The translations under genes were made by a program, and so were the position numbers. Of a DNA stretch of 64,000 nt, positions 6,950-30,308 are shown piece after piece (position 1 is the first letter of the stretch; every line of letters starts with the position of its first letter). The DNA is taken from positions 16,183 to 80,182 of the IMG/VR virus record IMGVR_UViG_3300033149_006612; one strand, 5' to 3'. The stretch comes from a virus. The notes beneath the pieces are model-generated. The model worked only from the letters and a program-made list of their open reading frames with translations. It searched no databases and had not been told where the DNA came from.

Positions 6950-8848
6950 TTACGCACGCCGAGCGTAAATCCGGCTGTACCCATCGGCGTAGACTATTTT
7001 GAGTATATTTGGAATCCTGGACGTCAACGCCGAATTATGGGAGATCGCAAAGACCGTCCCCCTCCTCCTCGCCTCCCCCTCAAGTAGATCTACAAACGTA
7101 GAGATCCCGGCTTCGTCCAATGAAGCATCGATCTCATCAAAAACGGATATGTTCGAACCTCCCCACATGGTCTCAACCAGGGACTGGAATGAGAGTGCCA
7201 CACAGAGGTCAATCCGCTTTGACTGTCCACCCGAGGAGGCCAGGTAGGAACCGGCCCTCTTCGGTATGTCCACAACCACATCGATACGGTCCTTGGCGGA
7301 TTTCTGAAACTTAACCGATATCTCCCCCCCGGTCAGGATTCCGGAGAAGTATTCGAGCTTCAGATTTAGGAAATCCACCACCTGTGAATAGCAGTACTCC
7401 TTAATTCCCCTTTCCGAAAAACCCGTCATCCAGAAACGCAGGTACCACAAGAGGTTCTGAATCTCCTCGATCCTGTCATCCATCTCATCGATCCCGTCCA
7501 TCTTCGCCTTAATCTGGGTCGATACCGTCTTCCTGTCCTCCTCCAACTGCCGTTTAACGGTCCGGTTCCCCTTGATCCGGTTATCCAGTTCGGTTATCTC
7601 GGCGTTCAGCTGGGCTTGCCGCCGCTGAAGACCGGCCAGGACGTTCAACGACCCAACGTCGTCCCGGTCACACTCGGCCATCCCGGCTTCCAATTCCGCC
7701 CTCTCCGCCAGAAGTACGTCCAGTTCCTGTAACTCCTCCCTCAACCTGTCGATCTTGTACGCGATGGCCTTCCGATCGTTCTTGAGCCCCTTGATCACAT
7801 CACCCATTAACGATCTCTGCTGCTTGATGTGTTCCTCGGTAAACGGACGTTTACACTCCTTACACACCCGCCCCGGTTTAATCTTTACCAACTCCTCCTG
7901 CTTCGCTTCCAACGATCCGTCAACGGTCTCCAGCTTCGTTTCAAACCTTGAAATCTCACGCTCCAGCTCGATTTTGTTCTCCGGACCGGCTATGATTTCC
8001 TTTAACCGATTATCCAACTCCCGTTTCCGTCTGAGATTGTCGTCCCGCCGTGCGGTCTCCGTCTCGATGTCCCGGTTTACCGCGTCTAACTCCTCCCGTC
8101 TGTCCTCCCGTTCCCGTTCCAGCTTAGCCGTCGTCCTAAGCACCGATTCCTGTTCCTTCAACTTTCCGTCTATATCCTCCTGCCACGCCCGAAGACCGGC
8201 AAGCTCGGACTCCTCGTTCTCCCGCCGCCGCTTCAAATCTTCAAGTTCGGACTCCAACCCGTCCTTGTCCGCCTTAACGCGTTCCCGTGCCTTGGTAAAT
8301 CTATCCAGCCTAAGGAAGGATTCAAGGACCTTCCTCCGTTCTGCGTCCGTACATTGGGTGAACCGCTTAACGGCCCCCTGCCCGAAGATCATCGAATTGA
8401 TCAGCGACTGATAGTTCAGACCGAGCAACTCCACTACCTTAGTCTCGGTCTCCTTGATGCTTTCACCGGATAGGTCCTCGGACCCCCGTTTCAGGATGAG
8501 GCCGTTCCCGTGCTCCGAATCCCTCCTATACCTGATGACCGAATAGGACCTGCCGTCGACCTCAAGATCGACCTGGACCATACAGTCGGCTTTGGTCTGC
8601 CGGTTGACCACGTCGTCCATCTTAAACTCCGCGGAGTCCCTACCGAATACGACCTGCCGGGCGGTCATCCCGAACAGGCACCACGGGATCGCATCGGTCA
8701 GCAATGCCGATTTTCCAGAACCGTTCGAATCTGCGCTTGGGGAATCGTAATTCTTACCGACCACCAGTACCAGCCCCCGGTCGGCCAGGTCAAGTTCGGC
8801 CTCCCTGAAGCTGAAAAAATTCCTCACTGTAAGACGGGTGAACCTCAT
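6950..8848 (-). CDS. SbcC/Rad50/gp46-like SMC ATPase (recombination nuclease subunit)
   Basis: Walker A NGSGKS, Q-loop FGQG, long coiled coil with zinc hook CKEC, signature SSGGQ, Walker B VFDE, H-loop ISH. Confidence 0.93.
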   Translation of the reverse strand: MRFTRLTVRNFFSFREAELDLADRGLVLVVGKNYDSPSADSNGSGKSALLTDAIPWCLFGMTARQVVFGRDSAEFKMDDVVNRQTKADCMVQVDLEVDGRSYSVIRYRRDSEHGNGLILKRGSEDLSGESIKETETKVVELLGLNYQSLINSMIFGQGAVKRFTQCTDAERRKVLESFLRLDRFTKARERVKADKDGLESELEDLKRRRENEESELAGLRAWQEDIDGKLKEQESVLRTTAKLEREREDRREELDAVNRDIETETARRDDNLRRKRELDNRLKEIIAGPENKIELEREISRFETKLETVDGSLEAKQEELVKIKPGRVCKECKRPFTEEHIKQQRSLMGDVIKGLKNDRKAIAYKIDRLREELQELDVLLAERAELEAGMAECDRDDVGSLNVLAGLQRRQAQLNAEITELDNRIKGNRTVKRQLEEDRKTVSTQIKAKMDGIDEMDDRIEEIQNLLWYLRFWMTGFSERGIKEYCYSQVVDFLNLKLEYFSGILTGGEISVKFQKSAKDRIDVVVDIPKRAGSYLASSGGQSKRIDLCVALSFQSLVETMWGGSNISVFDEIDASLDEAGISTFVDLLEGEARRRGTVFAISHNSALTSRIPNILKIVYADGYSRIYARRA

Positions 8849-9954
8849 ACCTCCTCCAGGTAGTACAGTCCGATTTCAAGGACGCCCCTTGCCGTTTCTT
8901 CATCCTCGACATGACCGGCCACATATTCAGCCAGGATGGTCGATTCGTCCCAGGCCCCGACCTCGACCGTCCTGCCGTCATCCTCCTCCCGGTATTCGAT
9001 CAGGATGTTGGTGTATCTCTCCTTCAACTTTTGTGCCTCGGCCACCCTGGCCGGGTCCCGCAGCCTGAACCGGACAAAGACGTCCCAGGTCGCCCGACCG
9101 GCATCGAATATATCCTTCATCAATCCTACCGTCTCATCGAAGTTCTCATCCGTGGCGGTCATATAGATCGGGCCGTCCTCGTACCAGACCGGTTCCGATA
9201 CCCCGGTATCGGTATCAAACTTCCACACCCCCCGGTTCTGACCGGCGTCACCGAAGTTAAATCCATACGGCGCACCGACCATTATGATCTCCGGTTCCGC
9301 CCGATTCAGTGCCCGTGGTATGTGGATGTCCCCACAGAAACAGACGGTATAGCGGTGCTGCCTCATCCATTCCCGGAGGTCCCGTTCAACGATCCCCTTT
9401 TCAGCCCTCTTACCTGACTCGAACTTAGCACCGACGATGTTCTCATGGATCATTAAAATCCGCCGTGCCAGGCCCCCGGTGTTGCGGTCGATGCCGCTCC
9501 CACCTTTAATTGCCTCGGCCGCAACACCGGCCGGGATCCCCGAGATGATCAGGTCCTCATCCCCCGCCGTGAGGTTAAAATGGGTAATCGGCGTGCCGTC
9601 CAGTACCTTCAGATTATCCAACGCCTGGCCCAGGACATAGATACTGTGGATCGAATCGTTCGACCTGGAATACCTGTCGTGGTTGCCCGGGATTACAAGC
9701 ATAATCCGGCCTTCCAGGAACCTGCTTAACTCATCCAACGTTCGGTTATACAGCGGAATCGAAATGGCGGTCCTCTGATCGAAGAGGTCGCCGCAATGGA
9801 GGATCACGCTCGAATCCCATCGCGCCATCTGCCGGTCAAGCCAGTTTAGGAATTCAAACCCGGCTTCCGCAGCCGTGGTCAGCCCGTCCGATAGGGGTCG
9901 GCTGAACATGCCGGTGGTCCTGAAATGCCAGTCGCCGGTCACGGTTATGATCAC
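8845..9954 (-). CDS. SbcD/Mre11/gp47-like metallophosphoesterase nuclease
   Basis: GDWH, GDLFD, GNHD, GDIH motifs; adjacent to the SbcC-like gene. Confidence 0.92.
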   Translation of the reverse strand: MIITVTGDWHFRTTGMFSRPLSDGLTTAAEAGFEFLNWLDRQMARWDSSVILHCGDLFDQRTAISIPLYNRTLDELSRFLEGRIMLVIPGNHDRYSRSNDSIHSIYVLGQALDNLKVLDGTPITHFNLTAGDEDLIISGIPAGVAAEAIKGGSGIDRNTGGLARRILMIHENIVGAKFESGKRAEKGIVERDLREWMRQHRYTVCFCGDIHIPRALNRAEPEIIMVGAPYGFNFGDAGQNRGVWKFDTDTGVSEPVWYEDGPIYMTATDENFDETVGLMKDIFDAGRATWDVFVRFRLRDPARVAEAQKLKERYTNILIEYREEDDGRTVEVGAWDESTILAEYVAGHVEDEETARGVLEIGLYYLEEV

Positions 9955-11276: not shown

Positions 11277-12290
11277 ATGGTAAAAAAGGTTACCGATTCG
11301 AAGACCGTCAAGGACATCATGGCCCGGATTGAAAAGAAGTATGGCTCCGGGACGATCTCAACCGGGATGAACTGGAGCATCGATCGGATCTCTACCGGGA
11401 TACTGGCCGTCGATCTCATCACCGGTGGCGGTATCCCGGTTTCGAGGATTACCGAGGTCTTCGGAGATCCGTCAACCGGTAAAACCCTCCTCGCCCTACA
11501 GTGGCTCTCGGTGGTACAGAAGTCCCAAGGGACCGCCGTTTACATCGCTACCGAGGATGACCCGGACCCGGACTGGGCAGCCGGTACCGGTCTTGACGTT
11601 AAAGATCTGATATACATCCGTACGAAATTTCTGGAGGAGATCTACGACATCATCCAACTGATCTGCGAATCCCACCAGAAGGAAAACCCGGATCGATATC
11701 TCGGGATCGTCCTTGACAGCATAGCCAACGCCGAATCGAAGGAGATGATCGATACCGACGTGGCCGACATCGGGAGGACGATGAACCTGGCCCGTGCCAA
11801 GGTCAACGCGGACGGTATGCGCCGGATAGCCAGAATCCTCCCAAAAACCAGAATAGCCGTCTGGATGGTCAACCACATGCAGAAATCGATCGATCCTTAT
11901 GCGTCCATGTTCAACACCCCCGGTGGAACTATGGTTAAGTATAATGCGGCACTCCGGCTGGCCCTATATGGAATCAAACCGGAGGACGCCGGAATCAGGA
12001 TGAGGGTCAAGGTTATAAAATCCAAGATCTGCCCACCCGGTGGAAAGGTTGAAATCATCCAGCTGAGATCGTCCAAGGTCAATTGGTACTCCGGCTTACT
12101 CCCACTGCTCGTCCGGTATGGACACGTTAAGGCATTGGCCGGTGGTTGGTATGAGATGGATGGAAATAGGTTCCAGGCTGGTAAGGCCGACGATCATCTC
12201 GGCTTCGAACGCTTCCTCGGTGATCATCCGGAGATCCTACGGAAGATCTTAAACCTGAAATATATAGAGGGGAGGATGGATGATGACTAA
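11277..12290 (+). CDS. recA: RecA/UvsX-like recombinase
   Basis: ISTGILAVDLITGGGIP, Walker A GDPSTGKT, Walker B VLDSIA, TPGG..KY.A..R. Confidence 0.92.
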   Translation: MVKKVTDSKTVKDIMARIEKKYGSGTISTGMNWSIDRISTGILAVDLITGGGIPVSRITEVFGDPSTGKTLLALQWLSVVQKSQGTAVYIATEDDPDPDWAAGTGLDVKDLIYIRTKFLEEIYDIIQLICESHQKENPDRYLGIVLDSIANAESKEMIDTDVADIGRTMNLARAKVNADGMRRIARILPKTRIAVWMVNHMQKSIDPYASMFNTPGGTMVKYNAALRLALYGIKPEDAGIRMRVKVIKSKICPPGGKVEIIQLRSSKVNWYSGLLPLLVRYGHVKALAGGWYEMDGNRFQAGKADDHLGFERFLGDHPEILRKILNLKYIEGRMDDD

Positions 12291-12765
12291 AAGGAGTACC
12301 CGGAAGGGGGCGAACTTCGAACGGAGGATAGCAAAGATCCTCCGCAACGTGTGGGGAATACCCCTGGAGCGGACGCCGCAGTCCGGCGCATGGGGGAAGA
12401 TGCGGACCAAAGGAGATCTGGTCGCCCCGCCGGAGATGGATTTTAGCCTACACGTCGAGTGTAAAAACCAGGAGGGGTGGAACCTCGATATGCTCTTCAC
12501 CGACAGGGGGAAGATCCTCCAAGACTGGTGGAGGCAATGCACGACACAGGCCGAGGAGGAAAGACGGGAGCCGCTGTTGATCTTCAGTAGGAATCTACGC
12601 CCGGTTTACGTCCGCCTCCTCCCCTCAAGGCCGGACTGGACGGAGGCGATACTCAAGACCGGGGAGACGGTGATGGTGCTGCCGGACGGGTCCTACGTTA
12701 TGACCCTGACGGCGTTCCTCAAGGCGTTCCCGGAAGCCCCGACGGATACTCGACACGACACCTAG
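12280..12765 (+). CDS. Holliday junction resolvase (PD-(D/E)XK, Hjc-like)
   Basis: KGANFER, SGA, GDL, VECKNQE motifs. Confidence 0.8.
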   Translation: MMTKRSTRKGANFERRIAKILRNVWGIPLERTPQSGAWGKMRTKGDLVAPPEMDFSLHVECKNQEGWNLDMLFTDRGKILQDWWRQCTTQAEEERREPLLIFSRNLRPVYVRLLPSRPDWTEAILKTGETVMVLPDGSYVMTLTAFLKAFPEAPTDTRHDT

Positions 12766-14161: not shown

Positions 14162-16744
14162 ATGAAGTACTGTAAATCATGCCCCAGGGCGGATGACCCC
14201 CTGGTCAATCCGGTACCTGGATTCCATCTACAACCGTCCAGCCGGGAGACTGCCAGAGTTATGATAATTCTGGAGTCTCCCACCCATATCCAAGTCGAAC
14301 ACGGTGATCCCCTGATGGACCGGGACTCGATCGATGACCCGGAAGCCGTCGAGGATATAGGTGCCATAATAGTTCAGCTGGAACGATGGAAGATCGACCC
14401 CTCCGAGGTTTTCATCACCTACCTTCAACGCTGTAAACCGCCTAAGTTCTCAAAAATCCAGGCCACCGAGTGTTATAAAACCCACGTCATGCCCGAGATT
14501 GAAACGGTCCGACCGGAGATCCTGATGCTGATCGGGAACAACGTCCTGTATACCATAACGGGTAGTAGAGGGATCCTGGCCAAACACGGTACTGTAATCA
14601 GGGTCGAAGGCTCCGACACCGTCCTCCTGCCCTGTATAGCTCCGAGTTACGTCCGTGCCATGGACGGCAGGCGACGGGAGGATGCCCAGCGGATGTGGGT
14701 CCAGGCGTTCCAGAGGTTGGCCGGTCTCCTCTCCGGGAGCGACGACGATGTAAATCAGAACTATCATATAGTCACGGGTCGCGACCGATCCCAATTGAAA
14801 GAACTGGAACGATACCTACTCGATCATGACTTCCATATGTTCGACCTGGAAACCTGGCCGTTGAAGCCTTGGGCTGAAGGGGCTCAGATACTGACCGCCG
14901 CCTGGTCCGCCTTTGAAGGTGAAGGTTGGGCAGTGGCATATGATCATCCCGAGGCCACCTGGACCTCCAAGGACAGGCGGTGGCTTAAGGACATGATCAA
15001 GGCATGGGCATCGGACAGGGATAAATTAAAAGGCGCAGCCAACGCCAAGTTTGAAATCATCTGGGTTCGGGAGATCCTCGGGGTAGAGCTGGAATCGGTC
15101 GTCGTTGACCCGATCGTGCTGGACTATCTTGATGATGAGAATCGCGACCACGACGTCGGAGCTATGGCCTGGAGGTATACCGATCTCGGCGGATACGACG
15201 CCTGCATGCGGGACTTTCGATATAGGGGTAAGGACGGCAGGGAGCAGCCCGACTACAGGAGAGCCCCGCTCGATCTGCTGGCCCGATATAACGTCACCGA
15301 TACGGACGTCGAGATCCGATCCATGAATGTCTTGATAGACAGGCTGGATGCCACATTAAAGAGAGTTCACGATGAGATACTGATCCCGGTTGCCTACACC
15401 CTGGCTACGGTAGAGAAGAACGGCTGGACCGTGGACATAGATCAGGCAATCAAGATATATGAGAAGTATGATCAGAAGTTGAAGGATCTACATGAGGAGC
15501 TCCGGGAAGACCCGGTCTTCCGACAGTTCGAGGAGGACCAGGGTAAACCGTTCAACTTTGACTCCTTCCCGCAAAAGGTGAAGCTCTTTTTCGGATGGGA
15601 CCCGAAGAAACACAGGAAATTCGATGACGCACAGAACCGGTATTTCGATTTCCCGATCGACTTTAACTTCATGACTAAAGCCCGGCATCCGTCCACCGAT
15701 AAGAACTGGCGTGCCGCCAACAAACACCACCAATTCGTGTCCGTCTATGATAGGTACATGAAGGCCTGGGGGCTGATGAAAGGATTCCTTAAGCCTCTGC
15801 CGGACTACATCGACAACAAGGACCGGCGGATCCACACCGACTACAACGCCGCGAAGGTGGTCTCCGGGAGACTGTCCTCCACCAACCCCAACACGCAGAA
15901 CTTCCCCGATGATAAGGAATTCTGGAGCATATTTATCTCTCGGTGGGGAAAACGAGGTGGAAGGTTCGTTAAAGCCGACTATTCCCAGGTGGAACTCCGC
16001 GTATTGGCCTGGCTGTCCAACGATCAGCCGATGATCCAGACGTTCAAAAACGGGATAGACATCCACATCCAAACCACGAAGGAATTCTTGGTTATCTCCG
16101 ACGAACAGTGGAACGCCTGGGACGATAAAACCCGGCACTATAAGCGGCAATGGGGGAAGAGGATGAACTTTGCCGTGGCCAATGACCGTGGCGCACATCA
16201 CCTGGCCCTGGATCTCACCTCCCTTCAGAGGGAGGTATCCGGAGATTGGAGCCTGGTCGTTACGGATGAGGAGGCCCAGGAATATATCGATCGCTGGTAT
16301 GCCCCCCATGAAGCCATCCTCGCCTGGAAGGAGGCCGAAATCGCTAAAGCCAGGGAGGTCGGCTACGTTGAATCCCCTCAAGGTTACCGGCGACGGGCAC
16401 CGGACGTCAATAACAGGTATGACAGCCATAAACGACTGGCTGCCGAACGCACCCTGATCTCGTTCCTCATGCAGAGCACGGCCGGGGTGATTACGCTGAT
16501 CGCCAAAACCCGAATCCAAGAGCTGATCACGGAAGGAAACTTTAAATCCAAGATCTGTGGGAGTGTGTACGACAGCATCATCCTCGATATAAGGATGGAC
16601 GAACTGGACGTCCTGTGCAGTCAAATCCCCGACCTGATGCGCCAGGTCGGTGTTGACTACGGCTGCCCGGTTCCGCTGGCCGTGGATCTGGAGATAGGCG
16701 AAGACGGGGGGAGCCTGGTGGCATATGATGAGGTCCCGTTTTAA
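14162..16744 (+). CDS. Family A DNA polymerase with N-terminal UDG-like domain and 3'-5' exonuclease
   Basis: N-terminal CxxC...VMIILESP...RCKPP...C (family-4 UDG-like); exo motifs DLET, NAKFE, YNVTD; SGRLSSTNPNTQNFP, motif A DYSQVELR, motif B RQWGKRMNF, motif C VYDS. Confidence 0.93.
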   Translation: MKYCKSCPRADDPLVNPVPGFHLQPSSRETARVMIILESPTHIQVEHGDPLMDRDSIDDPEAVEDIGAIIVQLERWKIDPSEVFITYLQRCKPPKFSKIQATECYKTHVMPEIETVRPEILMLIGNNVLYTITGSRGILAKHGTVIRVEGSDTVLLPCIAPSYVRAMDGRRREDAQRMWVQAFQRLAGLLSGSDDDVNQNYHIVTGRDRSQLKELERYLLDHDFHMFDLETWPLKPWAEGAQILTAAWSAFEGEGWAVAYDHPEATWTSKDRRWLKDMIKAWASDRDKLKGAANAKFEIIWVREILGVELESVVVDPIVLDYLDDENRDHDVGAMAWRYTDLGGYDACMRDFRYRGKDGREQPDYRRAPLDLLARYNVTDTDVEIRSMNVLIDRLDATLKRVHDEILIPVAYTLATVEKNGWTVDIDQAIKIYEKYDQKLKDLHEELREDPVFRQFEEDQGKPFNFDSFPQKVKLFFGWDPKKHRKFDDAQNRYFDFPIDFNFMTKARHPSTDKNWRAANKHHQFVSVYDRYMKAWGLMKGFLKPLPDYIDNKDRRIHTDYNAAKVVSGRLSSTNPNTQNFPDDKEFWSIFISRWGKRGGRFVKADYSQVELRVLAWLSNDQPMIQTFKNGIDIHIQTTKEFLVISDEQWNAWDDKTRHYKRQWGKRMNFAVANDRGAHHLALDLTSLQREVSGDWSLVVTDEEAQEYIDRWYAPHEAILAWKEAEIAKAREVGYVESPQGYRRRAPDVNNRYDSHKRLAAERTLISFLMQSTAGVITLIAKTRIQELITEGNFKSKICGSVYDSIILDIRMDELDVLCSQIPDLMRQVGVDYGCPVPLAVDLEIGEDGGSLVAYDEVPF

Positions 16745-17747: not shown

Positions 17748-18950
17748 ATGGTAGATATGGCCGCCATCCGTCGTCGCTACGACGAGATGCAGAGGAAACA
17801 ACGCGCGTCTTCAATCTGGAGACCGGCAGAAGGTGAGAATCTGATAAGGATCATCCCGTGGACCCATAAAGGGGTAGAATTCTTCTACCTTCAGTCGGCT
17901 CAGCATTTCTACGTCCGGCCGGATAAGGTGCCGGTCGAATGCCGGACGGGTCTTCTCGGTGAAGACTGCCCGATCTGCACCAGGCTGGAAATGGACCTTG
18001 AAGATCCGGAGACGGGGGAATCCGAACTCACCCGCATCAAGCGGATGCTGGCACGCGACGTCTATTACTTCAACATCTTCGACTGGCTCGCCTGGGAGGA
18101 ATGGCAAAAACTCAGCAGGAGTGAAAGGAGCAACGAAACCAAACCCGGATGTGAAATCTTCCCATGCCCCCCCGGCCTGGCCAGGGACATCTTCCAGAAA
18201 ATCCAGAATGAGAGGCTGTACCCGAATTTCTTCGATCTAGAAGACGGCTGTGATCTGTACATCCAGAACAGCGGTGAAGGATTCAACCGCTACACCCTGG
18301 ACATCCCACCGCAGCGAACCGCGGTTCCCAAACACGTCCTCGGGGAGGCGAAAAACCTGTTCACCTATGTTAAAGCTCCGTCTGAAGCCTGGGTGGAGGA
18401 ATTGATCACCAGGAACATCCGGGACATCAAGGATCTGAAGGAGGAATACCGCGGCGTTAACCGGATCGAGGTTCTGGGTGACATCGATGAAAGACCCGAA
18501 AACTGGCTCCTCTATTACTCCCCCGAAGAATCCACAAAATCCGCTGAGGGAAAGGCCGTCAATAAGGGGAGGAAAAAGAAAAAGGACAAAGGGAAGAGTG
18601 GCCTGGCCGCGCTCCGCTCAAAGATGGAGGGGAAGGAAGAAGGCGGAGGGAAAAAGCCTAAAAAGGAGGGATTTAAACGATCACCGATGACCGAGGATGA
18701 TGAAGACGTCCCCCGTTGCTGTGGGACCGATGAGACACCCGGTCACTGGGAGGAGGGATGTTCAGACTGCATCGCCTGTGTGGCCGAGGATGTCTGCCGC
18801 CATTTCACCGAGGGTCACAGGACCGTTACCAGGATCGCGAATGAGACGGAAACGAAGGCTGAGGAGGACAGCCCCCACCTCCGTGGCGTACAGGAACCCA
18901 CACCTGAGGAGAGTCCCCTAGACAGGCTTCGTAGGTTTAAACGGAAATGA
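17748..18950 (+). CDS. Single-stranded DNA-binding protein (T4 gp32-like)
   Basis: WRPAEGENLIRIIP, H...C...CPIC zinc motif, YYFNI, DLEDGCDLYI; charged C-terminal tail. Confidence 0.75.
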   Translation: MVDMAAIRRRYDEMQRKQRASSIWRPAEGENLIRIIPWTHKGVEFFYLQSAQHFYVRPDKVPVECRTGLLGEDCPICTRLEMDLEDPETGESELTRIKRMLARDVYYFNIFDWLAWEEWQKLSRSERSNETKPGCEIFPCPPGLARDIFQKIQNERLYPNFFDLEDGCDLYIQNSGEGFNRYTLDIPPQRTAVPKHVLGEAKNLFTYVKAPSEAWVEELITRNIRDIKDLKEEYRGVNRIEVLGDIDERPENWLLYYSPEESTKSAEGKAVNKGRKKKKDKGKSGLAALRSKMEGKEEGGGKKPKKEGFKRSPMTEDDEDVPRCCGTDETPGHWEEGCSDCIACVAEDVCRHFTEGHRTVTRIANETETKAEEDSPHLRGVQEPTPEESPLDRLRRFKRK

Positions 18951-19001: not shown

Positions 19002-20117
19002 GTGAAGCGAGGAAAACTCAACGTGCTGATTGACGGACAGTGGGGCAGCACCGGAAAGGGGAAAATTGCTGCCTATCTCGCCAACAAGTTCCGGATCGAC
19101 CTGGCCATTTCGAACAACATGAGCAACGCCGGTCACACCTTCTACGTGGACGGCCGGAAGTATGTGGCCTTCCACGTCCCGGCTGCGGTAGCCCGGCCGG
19201 ACTGTGAAGTCCTGCTGGGTCCGACCACGGCCATCACGCTGGACCTGTTCGAGAAGGAATTGGACTGTATGGAACGGTTAAACGTTCGAAAGCGGATGAG
19301 CATCCATCCCCATGCAACAATCATCACCGAACGGCATCGGGAGATCGAGGCCGGGTCCGTTGAACGGATTTCGTCCACCGTCAAAGGCTGTGGAGCCGCC
19401 CTAGCCGAGAAGGTGTCCCGGAGTAAAAACGTCCGACTGGCCGGTGAAGTTAAGGAACTAAGGCCCTATATCGCCGATACGGTCGAGATACTGCATACCG
19501 CCTTGGAGAATGGAGCCATCTGTTTAGCGGAGGTAGCGCAGGGATTCGATCTATCGTTAAACCACGGCATGCAGTATCCGTTCGTCACCAGCCGGGACGT
19601 CACGGTCTGTTCCTGCCTCAATGATTGTGGTGTCCCGCCCGCTGCGTTAGGTGACGTTTACGCCTCCCTCCGCTGCCATCCCATCCGGGTAGGGAATGTG
19701 GTCAGGGAGGGGAAGACGGTAGGTTGGTCCGGTCCTCATTACCCCGATCAGGAGGAATTGAGCTGGGACACCGTCACCAGGCAGTCCGGGAGTGAGAAAC
19801 CGTTGATCGAGAGAACCACCGTTACCGATAAGGTTCGCCGGGTCTTCAGCTGGTCCGACATCCAGTACAACAAATTCGTCAAGATGTGCGATCCGGATTT
19901 TGTATTCCTGAACTTCATCAACTACCTTGACGCCGATTTGTACGGTGTCAGTTCAGATGATGAATCCGGAATGCAGAGAGTCCTGGACTCCGAAAAGGTC
20001 GTCGAATGGCTCGACCGCCATTCCAAAGGTAACCCTAACTGGGTACCGGTCGCATACGTCGGGACCGGGCCGGATGAACGTCACATGGTCGATATGGGAA
20101 TCGACGACATCCGCTGA
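19002..20117 (+). CDS. purZ: PurZ, N6-succino-2-amino-2'-deoxyadenylate synthase (adenylosuccinate synthetase paralogue)
   Basis: GQWGSTGKG (Ser in place of the PurA catalytic Asp of GDEGKG), NAGHT, AQGFDLS..G.QYPFVTSR, PIRVG, ERTTVT..RRV, NFINY in place of PurA TKLD. Confidence 0.9.
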   Translation: MKRGKLNVLIDGQWGSTGKGKIAAYLANKFRIDLAISNNMSNAGHTFYVDGRKYVAFHVPAAVARPDCEVLLGPTTAITLDLFEKELDCMERLNVRKRMSIHPHATIITERHREIEAGSVERISSTVKGCGAALAEKVSRSKNVRLAGEVKELRPYIADTVEILHTALENGAICLAEVAQGFDLSLNHGMQYPFVTSRDVTVCSCLNDCGVPPAALGDVYASLRCHPIRVGNVVREGKTVGWSGPHYPDQEELSWDTVTRQSGSEKPLIERTTVTDKVRRVFSWSDIQYNKFVKMCDPDFVFLNFINYLDADLYGVSSDDESGMQRVLDSEKVVEWLDRHSKGNPNWVPVAYVGTGPDERHMVDMGIDDIR

Positions 20118-20169
20118 AACCCGGCCTTCCCGTGGGAATCCGCCTATCATATAGGATCGGTATATTGCT

Positions 20170-20655
20170 ATGAGAAAAGATGAGGATAGCCGCCCCCGTC
20201 GTCATAGATACGACCCCGACGGGGAAGAACCGAACGACGAGGCCCCTCCGCCGGTAAACCGAGACGGATACATCGAGTTCAAGACCGGGGCGACCCGCCA
20301 ATGCATTAAGCCCCGGTTTGATCTAATCCCGCGAGACTGCCTCGTCAGACTTGCCACCGTCTACCTCGAAGGTATGAGGAAATATGGGGTCGATAACTGG
20401 AAAAAAGGCATGCCCTGGTCGGATACCCTTAACCACGCCATCGACCACCTGCTGGCCTGGAAGGAGGGCAGACGGGATGAAGATCATCTCGGCCACGCCG
20501 CCTGGGGAATTTTTACCCTGATGTTCTTTGAGATGAACGATTATAGGGAGGACTGCGATCTGCCCTTACTGACCGAAACATTAGGAGTGAAACCGGATGA
20601 ACAAACTGCAGGTAAAGCGCCTGAAGGGACATCCTCACAGGCACCCGGAACTTAA
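20170..20655 (+). CDS. DUF5664 / dATP-dGTP diphosphohydrolase-like protein
   Basis: KPRFDLIP...G..KYG..NWKKG.....HAIDHL..W..G..DEDHLGHAAW pattern; directly after purZ. Confidence 0.8.
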   Translation: MRKDEDSRPRRHRYDPDGEEPNDEAPPPVNRDGYIEFKTGATRQCIKPRFDLIPRDCLVRLATVYLEGMRKYGVDNWKKGMPWSDTLNHAIDHLLAWKEGRRDEDHLGHAAWGIFTLMFFEMNDYREDCDLPLLTETLGVKPDEQTAGKAPEGTSSQAPGT

Positions 20656-21070
20656 GTATTGCTACGACGGTGATGTCGGGATGGACCTGATCGTCAACGT
20701 TGAAGATCAGGTCGTGATCCAACCGGGGGAGTTCGCGGACATCCCAACCGGCATCGCGATAAAGCTACCTGAAGGAACTTGGGCCGCCATCCGTCCCCGG
20801 AGTTCGACCTTTTTCCGACGAAGGTTAATCGTCTATGACGGTACGATCGACAACGGGTATACGGGACCCCTCTATATCGGGGTGTTTAACCCGGGACCGG
20901 ACGTTCAGATCATCCCGGAAAAGGCAAAACTGGCTCAACTGGTCATATTTAACCGAGTACCGATAGAGGAGGTTGAATACGTCGACAGCCTTCCCGAAAC
21001 CCAACGCGGGGAAGCCGGTATGGGGAGTTCTGACGCGGACGTAGATGGACGATGGACACGTACAACCTAG
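20597..21070 (+). CDS. dut: Trimeric dUTPase
   Basis: Five motifs: VGMDL, PRSS, GTIDNGYTG, AQLV, RGEAGMGSS. Confidence 0.88.
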   Translation: MNKLQVKRLKGHPHRHPELKYCYDGDVGMDLIVNVEDQVVIQPGEFADIPTGIAIKLPEGTWAAIRPRSSTFFRRRLIVYDGTIDNGYTGPLYIGVFNPGPDVQIIPEKAKLAQLVIFNRVPIEEVEYVDSLPETQRGEAGMGSSDADVDGRWTRTT

Positions 21071-22326
21071 ACTTCGAGACCCAGGTCAAGATCCTGGCGA
21101 TGGCCTGCCAGGATCCATCCTTCCTGTTGCAATACCGAGAATGTATAAATGCCGATTTCTTCACCCAAGAATCCTTAGTTCGAATCGCAGCCGTCATCCT
21201 TGACCATTTTGACCGTTATGACGACGCCCCGGATCGGACGGTAATCCGGCAGATGATCAAGGATCGTCATAACGATTTCGACGAAAACGAGCTTGAAGCC
21301 CTGATCGATGCCCTGTTCCACCCTCAGTATGACGCCGGTTTCGTCAGGGATGCCGTGATCGAATTTGCTAAGCGGGCAGCCTGGAAAGAACACTCCCTGA
21401 GATCCATCGATTTAATCGAATCCGGGGAATGGGAGGAGAAATGGGCCGACATCGAAAAAGGGGCTATGGACGCCCTATCTATAGGAGATCCCCAGCTTTC
21501 GATCGGCTATGAATGGAGGTCCGATCTCCGGGAAAGAATCCTAAACCTAAATAAGAAGGTACCGCGGGTCCCGACCATGATTAGAGGTCTGGATGAAGCC
21601 ATCAACGGCGGTCTGGCCGAGGGTGAACTCGGGATAGTGATAGCCCCCACCTCCGGATTTAAATCTACCCTCCTGATGAACTTCGCCGCCACGGCCCTTC
21701 TACAGAATAAAAGCGTTTACGTCTCCACCCACGAAATCCGAGACGTGTTCTGGGGGAGACGGCTGGACTGCCGTCTGACCGGCATGAACTTTGCCGCCAT
21801 GAACCGGAATCCGAGCATGGCGATCAAGAGGATGGAAACCATCCTCAAGAAATACCGGGCCAAGATAATCATTAAGGAATTCCCATCCGGGCAGGCAACA
21901 TGGCAGCAGGTCAAGAGGAACATTAACCTGTGGAGACGTCGAGGTTATCATTTCGACCTGATAATAGTCGACTATCTCGAAGAATTGAGAACTACGATCT
22001 CCACCAGGGACCGGCATGATCTAAGCCTGAAGAGTATAGCACAGGGGCTTCGAGCGATCGGTCAGGAATTGAAAGTCCCTGTCTGGACGGCCCAGCAGGC
22101 CCGTTGGCAGGCCGAAAACAGGGACCGGGCTGACTGGACATATGCAGCGAATTCCAAAGGCACCGTCCACGTCTCGGATGTAACGCTTACCATCAACCAG
22201 ACCAGGGATGAGAAGGAGGCGAATGAGGCCCGGTTATACGTGACCAAGAACCGCGAAGGTAGGAACCATGTGACCATTCCGGTCTCCATTAACCCGGACT
22301 ATTTCAGAATCAGCGAAAATCCCTGA
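21052..22326 (+). CDS. dnaB: Replicative DNA helicase (DnaB/gp41-like)
   Basis: GGLAEGEL, Walker A APTSGFKST, IIVDY, PVWTAQQ, KNREG. Confidence 0.9.
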   Translation: MDTYNLDFETQVKILAMACQDPSFLLQYRECINADFFTQESLVRIAAVILDHFDRYDDAPDRTVIRQMIKDRHNDFDENELEALIDALFHPQYDAGFVRDAVIEFAKRAAWKEHSLRSIDLIESGEWEEKWADIEKGAMDALSIGDPQLSIGYEWRSDLRERILNLNKKVPRVPTMIRGLDEAINGGLAEGELGIVIAPTSGFKSTLLMNFAATALLQNKSVYVSTHEIRDVFWGRRLDCRLTGMNFAAMNRNPSMAIKRMETILKKYRAKIIIKEFPSGQATWQQVKRNINLWRRRGYHFDLIIVDYLEELRTTISTRDRHDLSLKSIAQGLRAIGQELKVPVWTAQQARWQAENRDRADWTYAANSKGTVHVSDVTLTINQTRDEKEANEARLYVTKNREGRNHVTIPVSINPDYFRISENP

Positions 22327-22332
22327 AGCACT

Positions 22333-23247
22333 ATGGATTATTCAAGGCAGCAGCAACGGATCATCCGGTCCCTTGAAGCCAAACTGGGCTCCGGTAGGAA
22401 ATCCGGGTGGAACATCTATTTTGACTGCCCGTTCTGCAACGATACCCGGCGGAGGATGGGAGTTGAGATCCGGAAGCAGATCTTCGGCTGTTTTAACTGT
22501 AATGCCGGTGGGACCCTCTCGGCGTTGTTTCGGGAGATCGGGGTCGAACGACGGGCAAGGATCGTTCCGGAGAGGGTCATCGGGGAGCCCGAATTCCAGT
22601 CGGGTCTAAACAGGATAGATCTGCCGGAGCACTACACGCCGATCGGAAATCCGGTGCGTGGATTCCTCATGCGCCGAGCGGTTACCTATCTTCAAAATAG
22701 GGGTCTCGGGATGGATTGGATCGTTAAGCACAATGTCGGTTACTGCCCGGACGGACCTTATATCGATCGGGTCATCTTCCCCATGTTTCACCACGGTGAC
22801 TGTGTATACTGGGTGGCGAGGTCCATCATTCCCGACGTCAAACCTAAGACCAAACATCCGGCCGGGGTACGAAGGCCCGTCTGGACATTCGAACCGCCAC
22901 GCAAGTCGGCCCGAAGACTGATTATCGTTGAGGGTCTGTTCGACGCCATCCCGTGCCCCGACTCCGTGGCACTCCTGGGATCGACGGCCAGCCGGTCTCA
23001 GCTGGATTTCCTGCTTAAGCTCAGACCTAAGGAATACATCCTGATGTTTGACGGCGATAAAGCCGGGATCGACGGTGCCGTCAAGCTCGGAACCCGGCTA
23101 CAGGAGCGGACGGAAGCCCCGGTTACGGTGGTAGAACTCCCGGACGGTCTAGATCCGGCCGATCTCAGGACGGAGGAGAACCTCCGCCCCTTCATCGAAA
23201 ACCGGAGAAGACTGGATCTCCGGTATGTGTTCTCCAGGAGACTCTAA
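22333..23247 (+). CDS. dnaG: DNA primase (zinc finger + TOPRIM)
   Basis: CPFC...CFNC zinc finger, DRVIFP, IVEGLFDA, FDGDKAG, DPAD. Confidence 0.9.
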   Translation: MDYSRQQQRIIRSLEAKLGSGRKSGWNIYFDCPFCNDTRRRMGVEIRKQIFGCFNCNAGGTLSALFREIGVERRARIVPERVIGEPEFQSGLNRIDLPEHYTPIGNPVRGFLMRRAVTYLQNRGLGMDWIVKHNVGYCPDGPYIDRVIFPMFHHGDCVYWVARSIIPDVKPKTKHPAGVRRPVWTFEPPRKSARRLIIVEGLFDAIPCPDSVALLGSTASRSQLDFLLKLRPKEYILMFDGDKAGIDGAVKLGTRLQERTEAPVTVVELPDGLDPADLRTEENLRPFIENRRRLDLRYVFSRRL

Positions 23248-27742: not shown

Positions 27743-28861
27743 ATGGACACCAGACAGAAAATTAAAAAGATATACACCACCCTTAACGATCAACTGGTAG
27801 AGAGGTCCGAAGTCCTACAAGGGTCGATAATAGCGATCCTTGCTCGGAAACACCTCTTCATGATCGGGCCTCCGGGTACGGCCAAATCACTCGGAATCGA
27901 GAAGTTCTGCGAGTCAATCTCCGGCATGACATACTTCGAGGAACTGATGACCCAGCAGACAAAGCCCGAGGACCTCTTCGGTCCGATCAAAGTCTCAGCG
28001 TATAGAGAAGATCGATATGAGCGGAACGTCGAAGGATTCCTACCGACTGCCGACATCGCCTTTCTCGACGAGATCTTTAAGGCCGGTGGACCAAATCTTA
28101 ATCCGCTGCTGAGGCTGACGGATGAAACGCGCAAATTCCGGAACGGCAAACCCCAGATGGAGCGATGTCCGCTGAACAGCCTGTTTGCCGCCAGTAATGA
28201 ATTCCCCGAGAACGCAGCCGAACTCAGCGCTCTTTGGGACCGGCTGCTACTCCGATATGTGGTGGACGACATCGTCGATGATTCCAACTTCGAAGCCATG
28301 ATGGCCTTGGAGGAAATCAAAATCGAGCACACCATCACCAAGGAGGAGCTCCGGCAAGCCCAGGAGGAGGTCGACCGGGTAAAGATCACACCAGAAATCA
28401 TCCATGTGCTGACCGAACTCCGCTCGAAGCTCCGGAAGGAAGGATATATATTTTCTCCCCGGAGATGGCGGGAGTCAAAGCAGGTCCTCAGGGCTCATGC
28501 CTGGTTCCACGGCCGGGACGAGGTCTCCGAGGATGATCTTGAAATCCTGGCCGCGGTCCTCTGGGACAGGCCCGAGCAACGGCGCGAGGTACTTCGCATC
28601 TTGATGTCCACCACCAATCCCGACACTGCCACAGCCCTAGCGTTGTTCGACGACATCCAAGAGATCATTGATGACATCGAAAAGCAGCCGGACGAATCGG
28701 CCAAACTCGCTGCCAGTCAGGAGGCCGTAGTCAAACTCCGGGATATGATCCCGCTGTTTGACAACTTCCGGCCCCACGCTAAGATTTTTGAATTAAAAAA
28801 TCAGGCCATAGAGATGCAACGTGCCGTCGTCCGGAGGTATTTCGGAATTAACATTAACTGA
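27743..28861 (+). CDS. MoxR/RavA-family AAA+ ATPase
   Basis: GPPGTAKS, EDLFGP, GFLPTADIAFLDEIFKA, ASNEFP, ALWDRL, SPRRW. Confidence 0.9.
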   Translation: MDTRQKIKKIYTTLNDQLVERSEVLQGSIIAILARKHLFMIGPPGTAKSLGIEKFCESISGMTYFEELMTQQTKPEDLFGPIKVSAYREDRYERNVEGFLPTADIAFLDEIFKAGGPNLNPLLRLTDETRKFRNGKPQMERCPLNSLFAASNEFPENAAELSALWDRLLLRYVVDDIVDDSNFEAMMALEEIKIEHTITKEELRQAQEEVDRVKITPEIIHVLTELRSKLRKEGYIFSPRRWRESKQVLRAHAWFHGRDEVSEDDLEILAAVLWDRPEQRREVLRILMSTTNPDTATALALFDDIQEIIDDIEKQPDESAKLAASQEAVVKLRDMIPLFDNFRPHAKIFELKNQAIEMQRAVVRRYFGININ

Positions 28862-28871
28862 GGAGGCAGTC

Positions 28872-30308
28872 ATGTTCGTAACCAATGTTGACGCATTCGA
28901 CCGGAGGACATTCGAGGACATCGCTCCCCGGTCCAGCAAGGTGGAGGACATCCGGTCCTCCGCCGAATATTCCGAATACGGAGACCTGCTAGAGGATCTC
29001 ATGGTTGACGGCTTCGGCTCCCTGTACAAATACGCCCCCCGGGTTCTGGAAGACGTCCCACCGGAACGGATTCTCTCCAAGCGGGTCATTGAACAGTGGC
29101 AACAGTTACCGGAATGGCAGCAGTTCCGGAAGTTCACCGTAGGTGACGAGATCGTCAGTATGGGAGCCGTAGACGCCGTGTACCGGGTGTTCAAGGAGAT
29201 GCCGGTCGAGGTTAAACGACGCCAACGGGAACTCCAGGACTTCTCGGATCGGCTGACCGAAATGTTGAATTCCGACGATACTGATTTTGGTAGTGACGAA
29301 TTCAAGGATGCGGTAACCGACATGGTCGAAGCCGGTAATAGGGTGGATCAAGCCCTGGATGCCGACGAGGACCGGATACGAAAATTGTGCCGGGTGGCAC
29401 TTCGAGAGGCCGCGGATGAGGCAGAGATCGAGGGAAAGGCAATGCTGGCACTCGGTTTTGATGACTCTACCGGGGAACTTAACGGTTCCCACAAGGACGA
29501 TCGAATCAAAATAGCCAGCATGCTGCAGAACAATCCCAAGCTTCGAGAAATCGTTAAACTCGCCGGTCGATTCTGCTATGTGGCGGATAAAAAGCAGCGG
29601 GAGAAATCCGAATACGCCCGGTCCCAGGTATCCGGTATTGAATTCGGAGACGACCTGCAGCGGGTAACCCCCTCCGATATGGCCCTCCTGTCCGATAAAG
29701 ACTTAGAGGAATTGTTCTGGCTGAAGTACATCGAATCAGGACTCCAGCTCTACAAGATCACCGGCACCGAGACCCTAGGTAAAGGACCCGTCGTGATAAT
29801 GGTCGACTGTTCCGGTAGTATGGCGGGTCAGAAGGATATATGGGCAAAAGCCATGGCCCTAGCGGGTTATTCCATAGCCCGGAAGCAAAACCGGGACTTC
29901 GCCTTTCTGTTATACAACACCGAGGTCAGGAAACAGATCTACCTTAAATCCGGCACCGGCAAACGGAACATGACCGGTCTGGCCGAGATTCTATCATCCG
30001 GCGTCGGCGGTGGTACCGATTTCGAAGTTCCCATCACATACGCCATGCGGGAGGTCCTAACCAGGTCCGAATTTACCAAGGCCGACATCATCTTCATCTC
30101 GGACGGTTACTACATGATCGGTGACGACTGGTTCCGGGATTATCAAACCCGAAAGGACGGTATGGAATTCGCGTTCTGGGGAATTCAAATCGGCCCCAGG
30201 CTGAGAGGTATGGACGCGTTGGATAGACTGAGCGACGACGTGGTTTACCTGGACGGTGACATCCTGGCCAATCAGGACCGGGCTTTTGACATGGCCTTTA
30301 CCATCTAA
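28872..30308 (+). CDS. VWA-domain protein (ViaA-like partner of the AAA+ ATPase)
   Basis: KGPVVIMVDCSGSM MIDAS motif, GGGTDF, ADIIFISDG; GAGGAGG RBS before 28872. Confidence 0.9.
   Translation: MFVTNVDAFDRRTFEDIAPRSSKVEDIRSSAEYSEYGDLLEDLMVDGFGSLYKYAPRVLEDVPPERILSKRVIEQWQQLPEWQQFRKFTVGDEIVSMGAVDAVYRVFKEMPVEVKRRQRELQDFSDRLTEMLNSDDTDFGSDEFKDAVTDMVEAGNRVDQALDADEDRIRKLCRVALREAADEAEIEGKAMLALGFDDSTGELNGSHKDDRIKIASMLQNNPKLREIVKLAGRFCYVADKKQREKSEYARSQVSGIEFGDDLQRVTPSDMALLSDKDLEELFWLKYIESGLQLYKITGTETLGKGPVVIMVDCSGSMAGQKDIWAKAMALAGYSIARKQNRDFAFLLYNTEVRKQIYLKSGTGKRNMTGLAEILSSGVGGGTDFEVPITYAMREVLTRSEFTKADIIFISDGYYMIGDDWFRDYQTRKDGMEFAFWGIQIGPRLRGMDALDRLSDDVVYLDGDILANQDRAFDMAFTI

Follow-up and report, generated by a model that had tools for sequence, protein, structure and literature searches.

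The sole DNA polymerase of an uncultured phage that carries purZ combines a full set of catalytic residues with a remodelled nascent-base-pair pocket, and its substitutions are conserved in its own small clade, rare elsewhere and partly parallel to those of DpoZ, the polymerase of known Z-genome phages. Our preferred reading, to which we give a probability of about one half, is that this enzyme is the only replicase of a dZTP-making phage and belongs to a PurZ-linked subclade whose pocket changes are linked to a preference for dZTP. In sequence, the polymerase falls within the UDG-fused family A assemblage (SPO1/SP-10-like) and belongs to neither of the published DpoZ clades. The gene lies in a 64,000-nucleotide stretch of the IMG/VR virus record IMGVR_UViG_3300033149_006612 (positions 16,183 to 80,182; the window), and the features discussed are listed in Table 1.

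Table 1 Features of the polymerase gene and its replication neighbourhood (window coordinates).
Feature	Position	Strand	Details
RecA-like recombinase (11277-12290), PDDEXK nuclease (12280-12765)	11277..12765	+	Same replication module, upstream; syntenic in L002
DNA polymerase gene	14162..16744	+	860 aa; UDG-like domain, 3'-5' exonuclease, family A polymerase
Family-4 UDG-like domain, catalytic motifs decayed	14162..14746	+	Cys4, Cys7, Cys91, Cys104 intact
Exonuclease motifs	14843..15304	+	Exo I DLET 14843-14854; Exo II NAKFE 15041-15055; Exo III YNVTDT 15287-15304
TGR-motif region RLSS	15869..15880	+	R570 = Klenow R668
Motif A ADYSQVELR	15974..16000	+	D606 = D705; E611 = E710, steric gate
Motif B / O-helix RQWGKRMNFAVAND	16145..16186 (aa 662-675)	+	R662, K666, F670 unchanged; A671, N674, D675 altered
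Motif 6 ERTLISFLMQ	16445..16474	+	R763, Q771 unchanged; S767 = Klenow N845
Motif C VYDS	16565..16576 (aa 802-805)	+	D804 catalytic; Y803 rare; S805 lineage-typical
gp32-like single-strand DNA-binding protein	17748..18950	+	PF08804; syntenic in L002, L143
PurZ (2-amino-adenylosuccinate synthetase homologue)	19002..20117	+	PF00709, E 7e-34; GSTGKGK
DUF5664-type dATP/dGTP diphosphohydrolase homologue	20170..20655	+	PF18909, E 1.4e-19
dUTPase-like gene	20597..21070	+	PF00692, E 2.7e-17
DnaB-like helicase (21052-22326), DnaG-type primase (22333-23247)	21052..23247	+	

Fold and catalytic residues

The assignment to family A draws on both profile and structure. PF00476 matched the protein at 192 bits, against a curated cut-off of 34.3 (matches to the exonuclease were weak), and Klenow structures aligned to the ORF in HMMER with an E-value of 1.4e-36. 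An AlphaFold2 model (pLDDT 92.9) returned Klenow and Bst as its top Foldseek matches, with TM scores of 0.85–0.90 on the target, and this Klenow-type fold is accompanied by the catalytic aspartates D606 and D804 (D705 and D882 in Klenow) and by R662 and K666 (R754 and K758); Klenow R668, Q849 and E710 are conserved as well. What is missing is the family hallmark of an O-helix Tyr followed by Gly, whose positions are taken by N674 and D675. In agreement with the preliminary description of this DNA, motif A, the catalytic aspartates and the exonuclease motifs are all retained (Exo I D228 and E230; Exo II N294; Exo III Y376 and D380), with the refinement that Exo II has Glu298 at the position of Klenow D424, where 82/94 relatives have D and 12/94 have E. 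The ORF is the only PolA in the complete 80-kb direct-terminal-repeat genome, and neither a PolB nor a PrimPol nor any other second polymerase was found in that genome.

Substitutions in the active site

The frame translation of positions 16142–16576 reads K-RQWGKRMNFAVANDRGA ... GSVYDS. Departures of motifs B and C from the family A consensus had been noticed here from the letters alone, and they proved to be real in the HMMER alignment to Klenow, in the AlphaFold2 model and on three independent contigs. According to the alignment, F670 in motif B is the counterpart of Klenow F762, and A671, N674 and D675 correspond to G763, Y766 and G767, respectively (G763A, Y766N and G767D). In the model, N674 lies at the C-terminal end of a helix (residues 655–673), where Y766 closes the O-helix. 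In motif C, Y803 and S805 flank the catalytic aspartate at the positions of H881 and E883 (H881Y and E883S). A substitution in motif 6 had escaped the preliminary description: Ser767 occupies the N845 column, which is N in 138/147 relatives and in 117/117 Pol I sequences, and S in 4/4 sequences of the window clade.

These departures differ in how unusual they are. The O-helix Tyr is present in 117/117 bacterial Pol I proteins and in 126/147 UDG-PolA representatives; seven of the latter have Phe, and just one, P0158, has Asn, which also makes it the only other Asn-Asp case. The Ser of VYDS, by comparison, had been presented as a notable departure and is nothing of the kind, since S stands at the E883 position in 117/147 UDG-PolA relatives. 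As HDS is the norm across the lineage, E883S is not special and is uninformative about Z. The phiVC8 DpoZ also has HDS in motif C, and so, according to PMC8599892, does phage T5. We therefore rejected the VYDS/HDS motif as a Z adaptation. As to whether H881Y offsets the lost Tyr, four relatives have H881Y together with a canonical motif B, which weakens this idea.

A small clade shares the remodelled pocket

The set A/N/D/S/Y at these pocket positions is shared by the window protein, P0002, P0003 and the polymerase of the viral contig L002, which represent three independent lineages at 42–58% identity, and is absent from the 117 bacterial Pol I proteins and from nearly all of the 147 UDG-PolA relatives. 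Within the clade, each of the six departures varies little or not at all, with Asp or Asn at the G767 position. Since identical departures occur on three independent contigs at this level of divergence, they are not due to chance or sequencing error. In the tree, the clade has a support of 100 and lies inside the UDG-PolA set on a long stem branch (1.05).

That several near-invariant residues are altered together could also indicate a decaying or inactive polymerase, or errors of assembly behind the odd residues. We consider this very improbable, as the 860-aa frame is open, D606, D804, R662, K666, R570, Q771 and E611 are conserved, the structure model is confident and identical residues appear in three independent assemblies; moreover, the complete genome encodes a helicase, a primase and an SSB but no other polymerase.

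The clade is also tied to purZ, which adjoins the polymerase gene in two of its three lineages and very probably in the third. In L002, purZ lies 2.7 kb downstream of the polymerase. P0002 and the nearest PurZ homologue, P0272, come from the same source (JGI), and each of the two is on a contig of 10,647 bp. A purZ in the same genome, one of the marks expected of a DpoZ in the functional sense (a Z-selective replicase), is present for the window and L002 and is probable for P0002.

Close relatives are scarce: HMMER, run exhaustively against 1.84 billion representatives, gave only two. Searches of viral contigs for related loci, each with one protein (the window polymerase, P0158, P0186, P0190 or P0196), returned nothing, and the clade alignment found no relative among metagenome contigs and genome contigs. 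In IMG/VR, the back-translated DNA pattern for K-R-x-N-F-A-V-A-N recovered L002 plus a single chance match, L004, and in the metagenome collection the 80 matches listed of 117 were all due to chance. No close relative of P0158 or P0129 was found among cultured phages using tblastn, and no public sequencing runs were listed over the polymerase-to-purZ stretch.

PurZ and the nucleotide pool

The assignment of the polymerase to a UDG-fused family A lineage was borne out, and purZ is located 2.3 kb downstream of its gene. Two features were taken to define PurZ, following bioRxiv 10.1101/2025.10.22.683976: an adenylosuccinate-synthetase fold and a Ser (S14 in phiVC8 PurZ) where PurA has its catalytic Asp. 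The window gene has both. Its product is 42–43% identical to phiVC8-type PurZ, and the Ser of GSTGKGK (Asp in PurA) is invariant in an alignment with the PurZ proteins of phiVC8, Wayne and vB_BpsS-140. The gene is followed by a homologue of the DUF5664 family, for which dATP/dGTP hydrolase activity has been reported (PMC12884076), and by a dUTPase-like gene. The genome gave no HD_3 or YfbR-like match that would indicate DatZ. We propose that the phage makes dZTP by means of PurZ, the DUF5664 dATP/dGTP hydrolase and the dUTPase-like enzyme, without DatZ, in which case its virion DNA would contain Z. With DatZ absent, there would be a role left for a selective polymerase.

Alternatively, the pocket may serve a purpose other than Z, such as a second base modification (compare hydroxymethyluracil in SPO1 and SP-10) or a low-fidelity, strand-displacing or lesion-tolerant mode of synthesis. 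The nearest named relatives do come from modified-pyrimidine phages, Y766 substitutions alter the fidelity of Klenow and the genome has the dUTPase-like gene. However, no thymidylate-synthase-like (hydroxymethylase-type) gene was found in the genome, the UDG catalytic motifs are decayed and the Tyr is retained in SPO1, SP-10 and Nachito, while intact proofreading motifs in a sole replicase argue against a dedicated error-prone role. We regard such a purpose as improbable.

Comparison with related and Z-linked polymerases

The best named matches are the polymerases of the Bacillus phages SPO1, SP-10 and Nachito (23–27% identity over ~95% of the length, with E-values down to 6e-73 for SP-10), which are unclustered UDG-PolAs in Czernecki et al. 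2023 (PMC10201439). They have the same architecture of a family-4 UDG-like domain, 3'-5' exonuclease and PolA, share HDS-type motif C with the window lineage and group with it in the tree. Unlike the window clade, they retain the motif B Tyr, N845 and H881; their genomes have reported modified uracil and no known link to PurZ, and the window clade is <30% identical to them on a long separate branch. The Z reading had been made conditional on these residues being uncommon in purZ-negative relatives, and the relatives examined agree with this: KimJongPhill, which was checked and lacks purZ, has a canonical motif B, as do SPO1, SP-10 and Nachito (counted as PurZ-negative from their reported modified uracil, KimJongPhill alone having been checked for purZ).

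We then compared the enzyme with the two DpoZ clades. The phiVC8-like DpoZ (PolA cluster 18, DpoZ-2; PDB 7PBK) is, like the window polymerase, a family A enzyme encoded near purZ, and it departs from the consensus at the same pocket sites, with Tyr replaced by Phe (..IFN..), the next Gly by Asn and N845 of motif 6 by Gly. However, BLASTP gives no meaningful relationship between the two (E about 0.1). The phiVC8 enzyme is without a UDG domain; in its O-helix, the F762 position (B3) is Leu, B4 is Phe and there is a loop insertion. F670, N674 and the normal R-x3-K spacing place the window polymerase outside cluster 18; in addition, phiVC8-like phages encode DatZ, which the window genome lacks. 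The Wayne-like DpoZ (PolA cluster 19, DpoZ-1) is also PurZ-linked and has the Tyr to Phe change in motif B (..IFG..), and Wayne-like phages resemble the window genome in having DUF5664 and dUTPase-type pool enzymes instead of DatZ. The similarity of Wayne DpoZ to the window polymerase is weak and does not extend beyond the core of the polymerase (249 residues, E 1e-9). Wayne DpoZ has no UDG domain and a separate tree branch, and Wayne PurZ is of the PurZ0 type, about 28–31% identical to the window PurZ; the window polymerase does not belong to cluster 19 either.

Tyr to Phe is the sole change common to both DpoZ clades (PMC8599892). Exonuclease-deficient DpoZ mutants have the same A/Z ratio as before, so that selectivity should lie with the polymerase domain (PMC8599892), but the authors of the DpoZ structure considered Tyr to Phe an unlikely cause of A/Z discrimination. 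A PurZ-linked UDG-PolA is also found on the IMG/VR contigs L143/L144. This polymerase (P0129) is 26% identical to that of the window, the PurZ proteins are 37% identical, and the gene order matches (RecA, nucleases, UDG-PolA, a small ORF, gp32-like, PurZ, dUTPase-like, DnaB and primase). P0129 nevertheless keeps the Tyr, the following Gly, Asn845 and His881, with G763A as its only shared pocket change, and the PurZ-positive phage Hiyaa apparently keeps the O-helix Tyr too. The canonical residues of L143 and Hiyaa indicate that the substitutions are not needed for replication in a PurZ phage.

The idea that the pocket is a Z adaptation therefore stands in part. It is supported by the PurZ-linked clade and by the change of the same Tyr in DpoZ; it is weakened by the lineage-wide HDS and by the canonical pocket of PurZ-positive L143. 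We consider Z-selectivity of the polymerase plausible but unproven.

Selective or non-selective replication

The enzyme could instead be an ordinary non-selective replicase whose pocket reflects lineage-specific drift, compensated internally (for example, with Tyr803 or Ala671 making up for the lost Tyr at 674), and A would then be excluded solely by pool editing through DUF5664 and the dUTPase-like enzyme, much as S-2L does with DatZ. We take this possibility seriously and yet hold it to be somewhat doubtful. There is precedent in cyanophage S-2L, which achieves complete A-to-Z replacement with a non-selective PrimPol and a dATPase (PMC10201439). The canonical pockets of P0129 and Hiyaa, the doubts of the DpoZ authors about the Tyr position and the DUF5664 gene in the genome point the same way, as does the long stem of the clade, along which many changes accumulated, and the pocket positions are more variable in phage UDG-PolAs than in Pol I. 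Against drift, the six positions have stayed fixed in three lineages at 42–58% identity, which argues for selection. Published work describes the O-helix Tyr as universal in the family, and Klenow without it is a mutator, with T-dGTP errors in the Y766A form. Furthermore, the Tyr site is changed in 3/5 PurZ-linked PolA lineages examined, a small sample in which the change looks concentrated.

Under our preferred reading, a link to dZTP preference, the subclade would have rebuilt the floor of the pocket (Y766 to Asn, G763 to Ala, G767 to Asp or Asn, N845 to Ser and H881 to Tyr) with all of the catalytic and triphosphate-binding residues preserved. Such a change may have been tolerated or selected because the enzyme would meet solely pairs with three hydrogen bonds (Z:T and G:C). 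In Klenow, the Y766A enzyme shows poor closure on A:T and T:A and almost normal closure on G:C (PMC3715850); against this reading, Y766F behaves as wild type. The bulky Tyr would normally stabilize the closed complex, and without it closure may become more sensitive to pair strength, so that dZTP would be favoured over dATP opposite T. In this specific form, in which the Tyr 'gate' was given up in an all-three-hydrogen-bond genome and dATP is rejected intrinsically by closure that senses pair strength, we consider the proposal speculative and rather unlikely. If true, Z-selectivity would have been reached by a new route with a distinct structural basis, and loss of the O-helix Tyr (to Phe or Asn) would be a recurrent signature of Z-genome polymerases.

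The two published groups of Z-genome polymerases share a change at the O-helix Tyr. The window clade, a PolA lineage unrelated to either and likewise tied to purZ, shows a much more drastic change (Tyr to Asn) and has three neighbouring pocket residues altered. This remodelled clade and its syntenic canonical sister (L143) offer a natural comparison for the determinants of A/Z discrimination, and enzymes of this kind are also of applied interest, for Z-DNA production and polymerase engineering.

The UDG-like N-terminal domain

This clade further connects the UDG-fused polymerases, an enigmatic group, with Z-DNA, in agreement with a metagenomic association in which the UDG Pfam domain is enriched on dZ-modified contigs (preprint, bioRxiv 10.1101/2025.10.22.683976). 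A Pfam search of the window protein gave no UDG match, whereas PF03167 matches the L002 polymerase at 92 bits. Its N-terminus is homologous to the UDG domains of the L002 and L143 polymerases (BLASTP E 5e-9 and 4e-14, respectively) and has the four Fe-S cysteines, which identify it as a UDG-PolA with altered catalytic motifs. The decay of these motifs was another feature absent from the preliminary description: LESPT replaces GEAPG, and APS replaces HPS (HPS/HPA in intact domains), with loss of the histidine, while GEAPG and HPS-type motifs are intact in the L002 and L143 polymerases.

Active site and fold of the polymerase

The window covers bases 16183-80182 of a virus contig from IMG/VR that is 80,182 bp long, has direct terminal repeats and was judged to be complete. 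Among solved structures, its family A polymerase is closest to those of Klenow fragment, Taq and Bst Pol I, with E values between 1e-36 and 1e-28. A confident AlphaFold2 model built from 98 relatives (mean pLDDT 92.9, pTM 0.91) has Klenow and Bst complexes as its top structural matches (TM 0.85-0.90, target-normalised). Residue equivalences with Klenow were taken from a HMMER residue-level alignment. This confirmed the active-site departures claimed in a preliminary description, whose translation of 16142-16576 was correct, and extended them by one in motif 6, where Ser767 stands for Klenow N845. Motif A D606 and E611, R570 (= R668) and Q771 (= Q849) are all retained. In the model, a short loop (674-677) connects two helices (655-673 and 678-693); this predicted arrangement matches O-helix/O1-helix geometry, with N674 in the position of Y766, the residue that closes the O-helix. 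Of the exonuclease motifs, Exo I (D228/E230) and Exo III (Y376/D380) are present, and Exo II has N294 together with Glu298 at the Klenow D424 position, a Glu variant found in 12/94 relatives.

We aligned the polymerase domains of the four clade sequences (the window protein, P0002, P0003 and the polymerase of the related contig L002) with those of 147 UDG-PolA representatives (polymerases fused to a family-4 UDG-like domain), which were the best-ranked sequences of an exhaustive HMMER search over 1.84 billion proteins, and of 117 bacterial Pol I from a word-based search.

Active-site residues of the window polymerase, with residue counts at the equivalent positions in the three aligned sets
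Klenow	Window	State	Bacterial Pol I (of 117)	UDG-PolA (of 147)	Clade (of 4)
R754	R662	kept
K758	K666	kept
F762	F670	kept
G763	A671	changed	G 117	G 108, A 13	A 4
Y766	N674	changed	Y 117	Y 126, F 7, N 1 (P0158)	N 4
G767	D675	changed	G 117	G 109, D 2	D 3, N 1
N845	S767	changed	N 117	N 138, S 2	S 4
H881	Y803	changed	H 117	H 137, Y 4	Y 4
D882	D804	kept
E883	S805	changed	E 117	S 117, E 11, A 11	S 3, A 1

P0158 was the sole other Asn-Asp case among the 147 representatives. The motif C change from Glu to Ser had also been counted as a departure of the pocket, but Ser is the usual residue in the UDG-PolA relatives, and motif C reads HDS in SPO1, SP-10 and Nachito, as well as in phiVC8 DpoZ and phage T5 (PMC8599892). 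As HDS is a lineage rule in UDG-PolA, E883S was dropped from the argument for 2-aminoadenine (Z). The set formed by A671, N674 and D675 with Ser767 and Tyr803 is clade-specific.

Among the 1.84 billion representatives, the only close clusters were P0002 (48%) and P0003 (51%), all others being at most 34% identical. P0003 and P0268, the L002 polymerase of 854 aa, share a 90% cluster, so that the clade comprises three independent lineages with mutual identity of 42-58%. All three carry NFAVAN[DN]RGA, ISF[LM]MQ and YD[SA]; at this identity, such conservation excludes sequencing error and points to purifying selection. Separately, the polymerase sequence of P0002 (a JGI metagenome protein, 1091 aa) is interrupted between RLSSTDP and NTQN by an insert of ~230 aa, which starts with Cys, ends with His-Asn followed by Thr and includes an HNH_3 endonuclease domain. 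This insert resembles an intein located in a conserved active-site motif.

Relation to known Z polymerases

By BLASTP, the window protein matched the polymerases of SP-10 (E 6e-73), Nachito (6e-71) and SPO1 (2e-50), and among the Z-specific polymerases (DpoZ) matched Wayne at only 1e-9 and phiVC8 at about 0.1. A maximum-likelihood tree recovered the clade as monophyletic, with SH-aLRT 100 and a long stem, and placed it within the UDG-PolA set (support 94) and apart from both DpoZ groups, the two recognised in the literature (PMC10201439; PMC12884076). The window polymerase thus represents a family A lineage that is linked to PurZ and belongs to neither of the published DpoZ clades, and its pocket is conserved and very unusual. 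A PurZ-linked UDG-PolA would fit a 2025 preprint that associates the UDG Pfam domain with dZ-modified contigs and leaves the association unexplained (bioRxiv 10.1101/2025.10.22.683976).

The UDG-like N-terminal domain shows homology to bona fide family-4 UDG domains; the window protein has lost the signatures GEAPG and HPS, both of which the L002 and L143 enzymes keep. The window has LESPT for GEAPG and APS for HPS, P0002 has Ser for the HPS His, and the four cysteines persist.

Genomic context

Features of the window and of the related contigs L002 and L143
Feature	Coordinates	Strand	Details
SbcC-like (AAA_23/SMC_N) and SbcD-like (Metallophos) nuclease pair	6950-9954	-	upstream of replication module
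Polymerase ORF	14162-16744	+	860 aa; Pfam DNA_pol_A 192 bits; weak 3'-5' exonuclease matches
UDG domain, window	14162-14746
UDG domain, L002	L002:4464-5078
UDG domain, L143	L143:10001-10570
gp32-like SSB			downstream of polymerase
PurZ homologue	19002-20117		42-43% identity to phiVC8-type PurZ; GSTGKGK
PurZ with DUF5664 and dUTPase-like enzymes	19002-21070
MoxR-type AAA+ ATPase (bpMoxR, AAA_5), then VWA-domain protein	27743-30308
Kinase-like/dUTPase-like gene, then putative ribonucleotide reductase (large ORF)	L143:15597-18803		after purZ

RecA and a PDDEXK nuclease lie upstream of the polymerase. The Ser of the PurZ GSTGKGK motif sits in the PurZ-defining column of the alignment, and PurZ is followed by a DUF5664-type dATP/dGTP diphosphohydrolase, a dUTPase-like gene, DnaB and primase. 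Searches of the genome for other replicases found neither PolB nor PrimPol, so the window polymerase must replicate the genome; no thymidylate-synthase-like gene was found in it either. The phiVC8-type PurZ is paired here with pool enzymes described for Wayne-like phages, and a genome-wide search for DatZ (HD_3 or YfbR-like) found none despite this PurZ type.

L002 is syntenic with the window and encodes a PurZ (52% identity) 2.7 kb past its polymerase. In the large protein collection, P0272 (55%, GSTGKGK) is the nearest PurZ homologue. It comes from one JGI contig, 10,647 bp long, and P0002, likewise from JGI, is on a contig of the same length. All three clade lineages are therefore PurZ-linked, that of P0002 by inference. 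The matches listed for a protein search with 19002-20114 include more than 120 PurZ homologues that are 42-55% identical, and many of them lie on contigs of 40-66 kb; set against three polymerase lineages, this PurZ type must travel with several different polymerases.

Possible Z selectivity and its basis

Exonuclease-deficient DpoZ mutants have an unchanged A/Z ratio, which places the determinant in the polymerase domain, and the two DpoZ clades have a single mutation in common, Tyr to Phe, at a Tyr described as "otherwise strictly conserved" (PMC8599892). The phiVC8, Acinetobacter 2AB-P and Burkholderia BCSR129 polymerases read N-L-[GS]-M-[IV]-F-N, with Phe at the Tyr position and Asn next; Wayne reads N-F-S-L-I-F-G, also with Phe. 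Like the clade, phiVC8 DpoZ departs at the N845 position (G548). The DpoZ authors considered the milder Tyr to Phe change unlikely to explain selectivity (PMC8599892; PMC10201439).

In the closed state of Klenow, Y766 is hydrogen-bonded to E710, and these two residues help to form the nascent-pair pocket. The Y766F enzyme resembles wild type, whereas Y766A has a mutator phenotype and shows poor closure on A:T and T:A but almost normal closure on G:C (PMC3715850). From Y766A we infer that an enzyme lacking the aromatic side chain would close efficiently chiefly when the pair is strong. All pairs of a Z genome have three hydrogen bonds, and loss of the Tyr could be tolerated while dATP opposite T would be penalised. 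Z-selectivity of the window polymerase is accordingly proposed only as a testable hypothesis. The main rival is a non-selective polymerase, with adenine excluded through pool editing by the DUF5664 and dUTPase-like enzymes, as DatZ does for cyanophage S-2L.

The suggested adaptation of the pocket to Z is partly supported: the clade is PurZ-linked and changed at the same Tyr site as DpoZ, but at least one other PurZ-positive lineage keeps the Tyr. P0129, the polymerase of contigs L143/L144 and a weakly grouped neighbour of the clade in the tree, retains Tyr, Gly, Asn845 and His881 despite a module syntenic with that of the window, including a PurZ with the Ser hallmark; in PurZ-positive Hiyaa, the Tyr is apparently kept (MAFFT alignment only). 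The substitutions are thus not required in a PurZ phage and arose within a lineage already PurZ-linked. The Phe variants P0190 and P0196 fall in the same weak tree group as the clade. Motif B is canonical in SPO1, SP-10, Nachito and the relative from KimJongPhill, the one of these covered by a purZ check, which found the gene absent.

Elsewhere in these contigs, the SbcC-like/SbcD-like pair recurs in L143, where it adjoins the polymerase. The L143 gene after purZ resembles a putative fusion of a P-loop kinase-like N-half with a dUTPase-like C-half. The MoxR-type ATPase and VWA-domain protein of the window are two parts of MoxR-vWA ternary systems.
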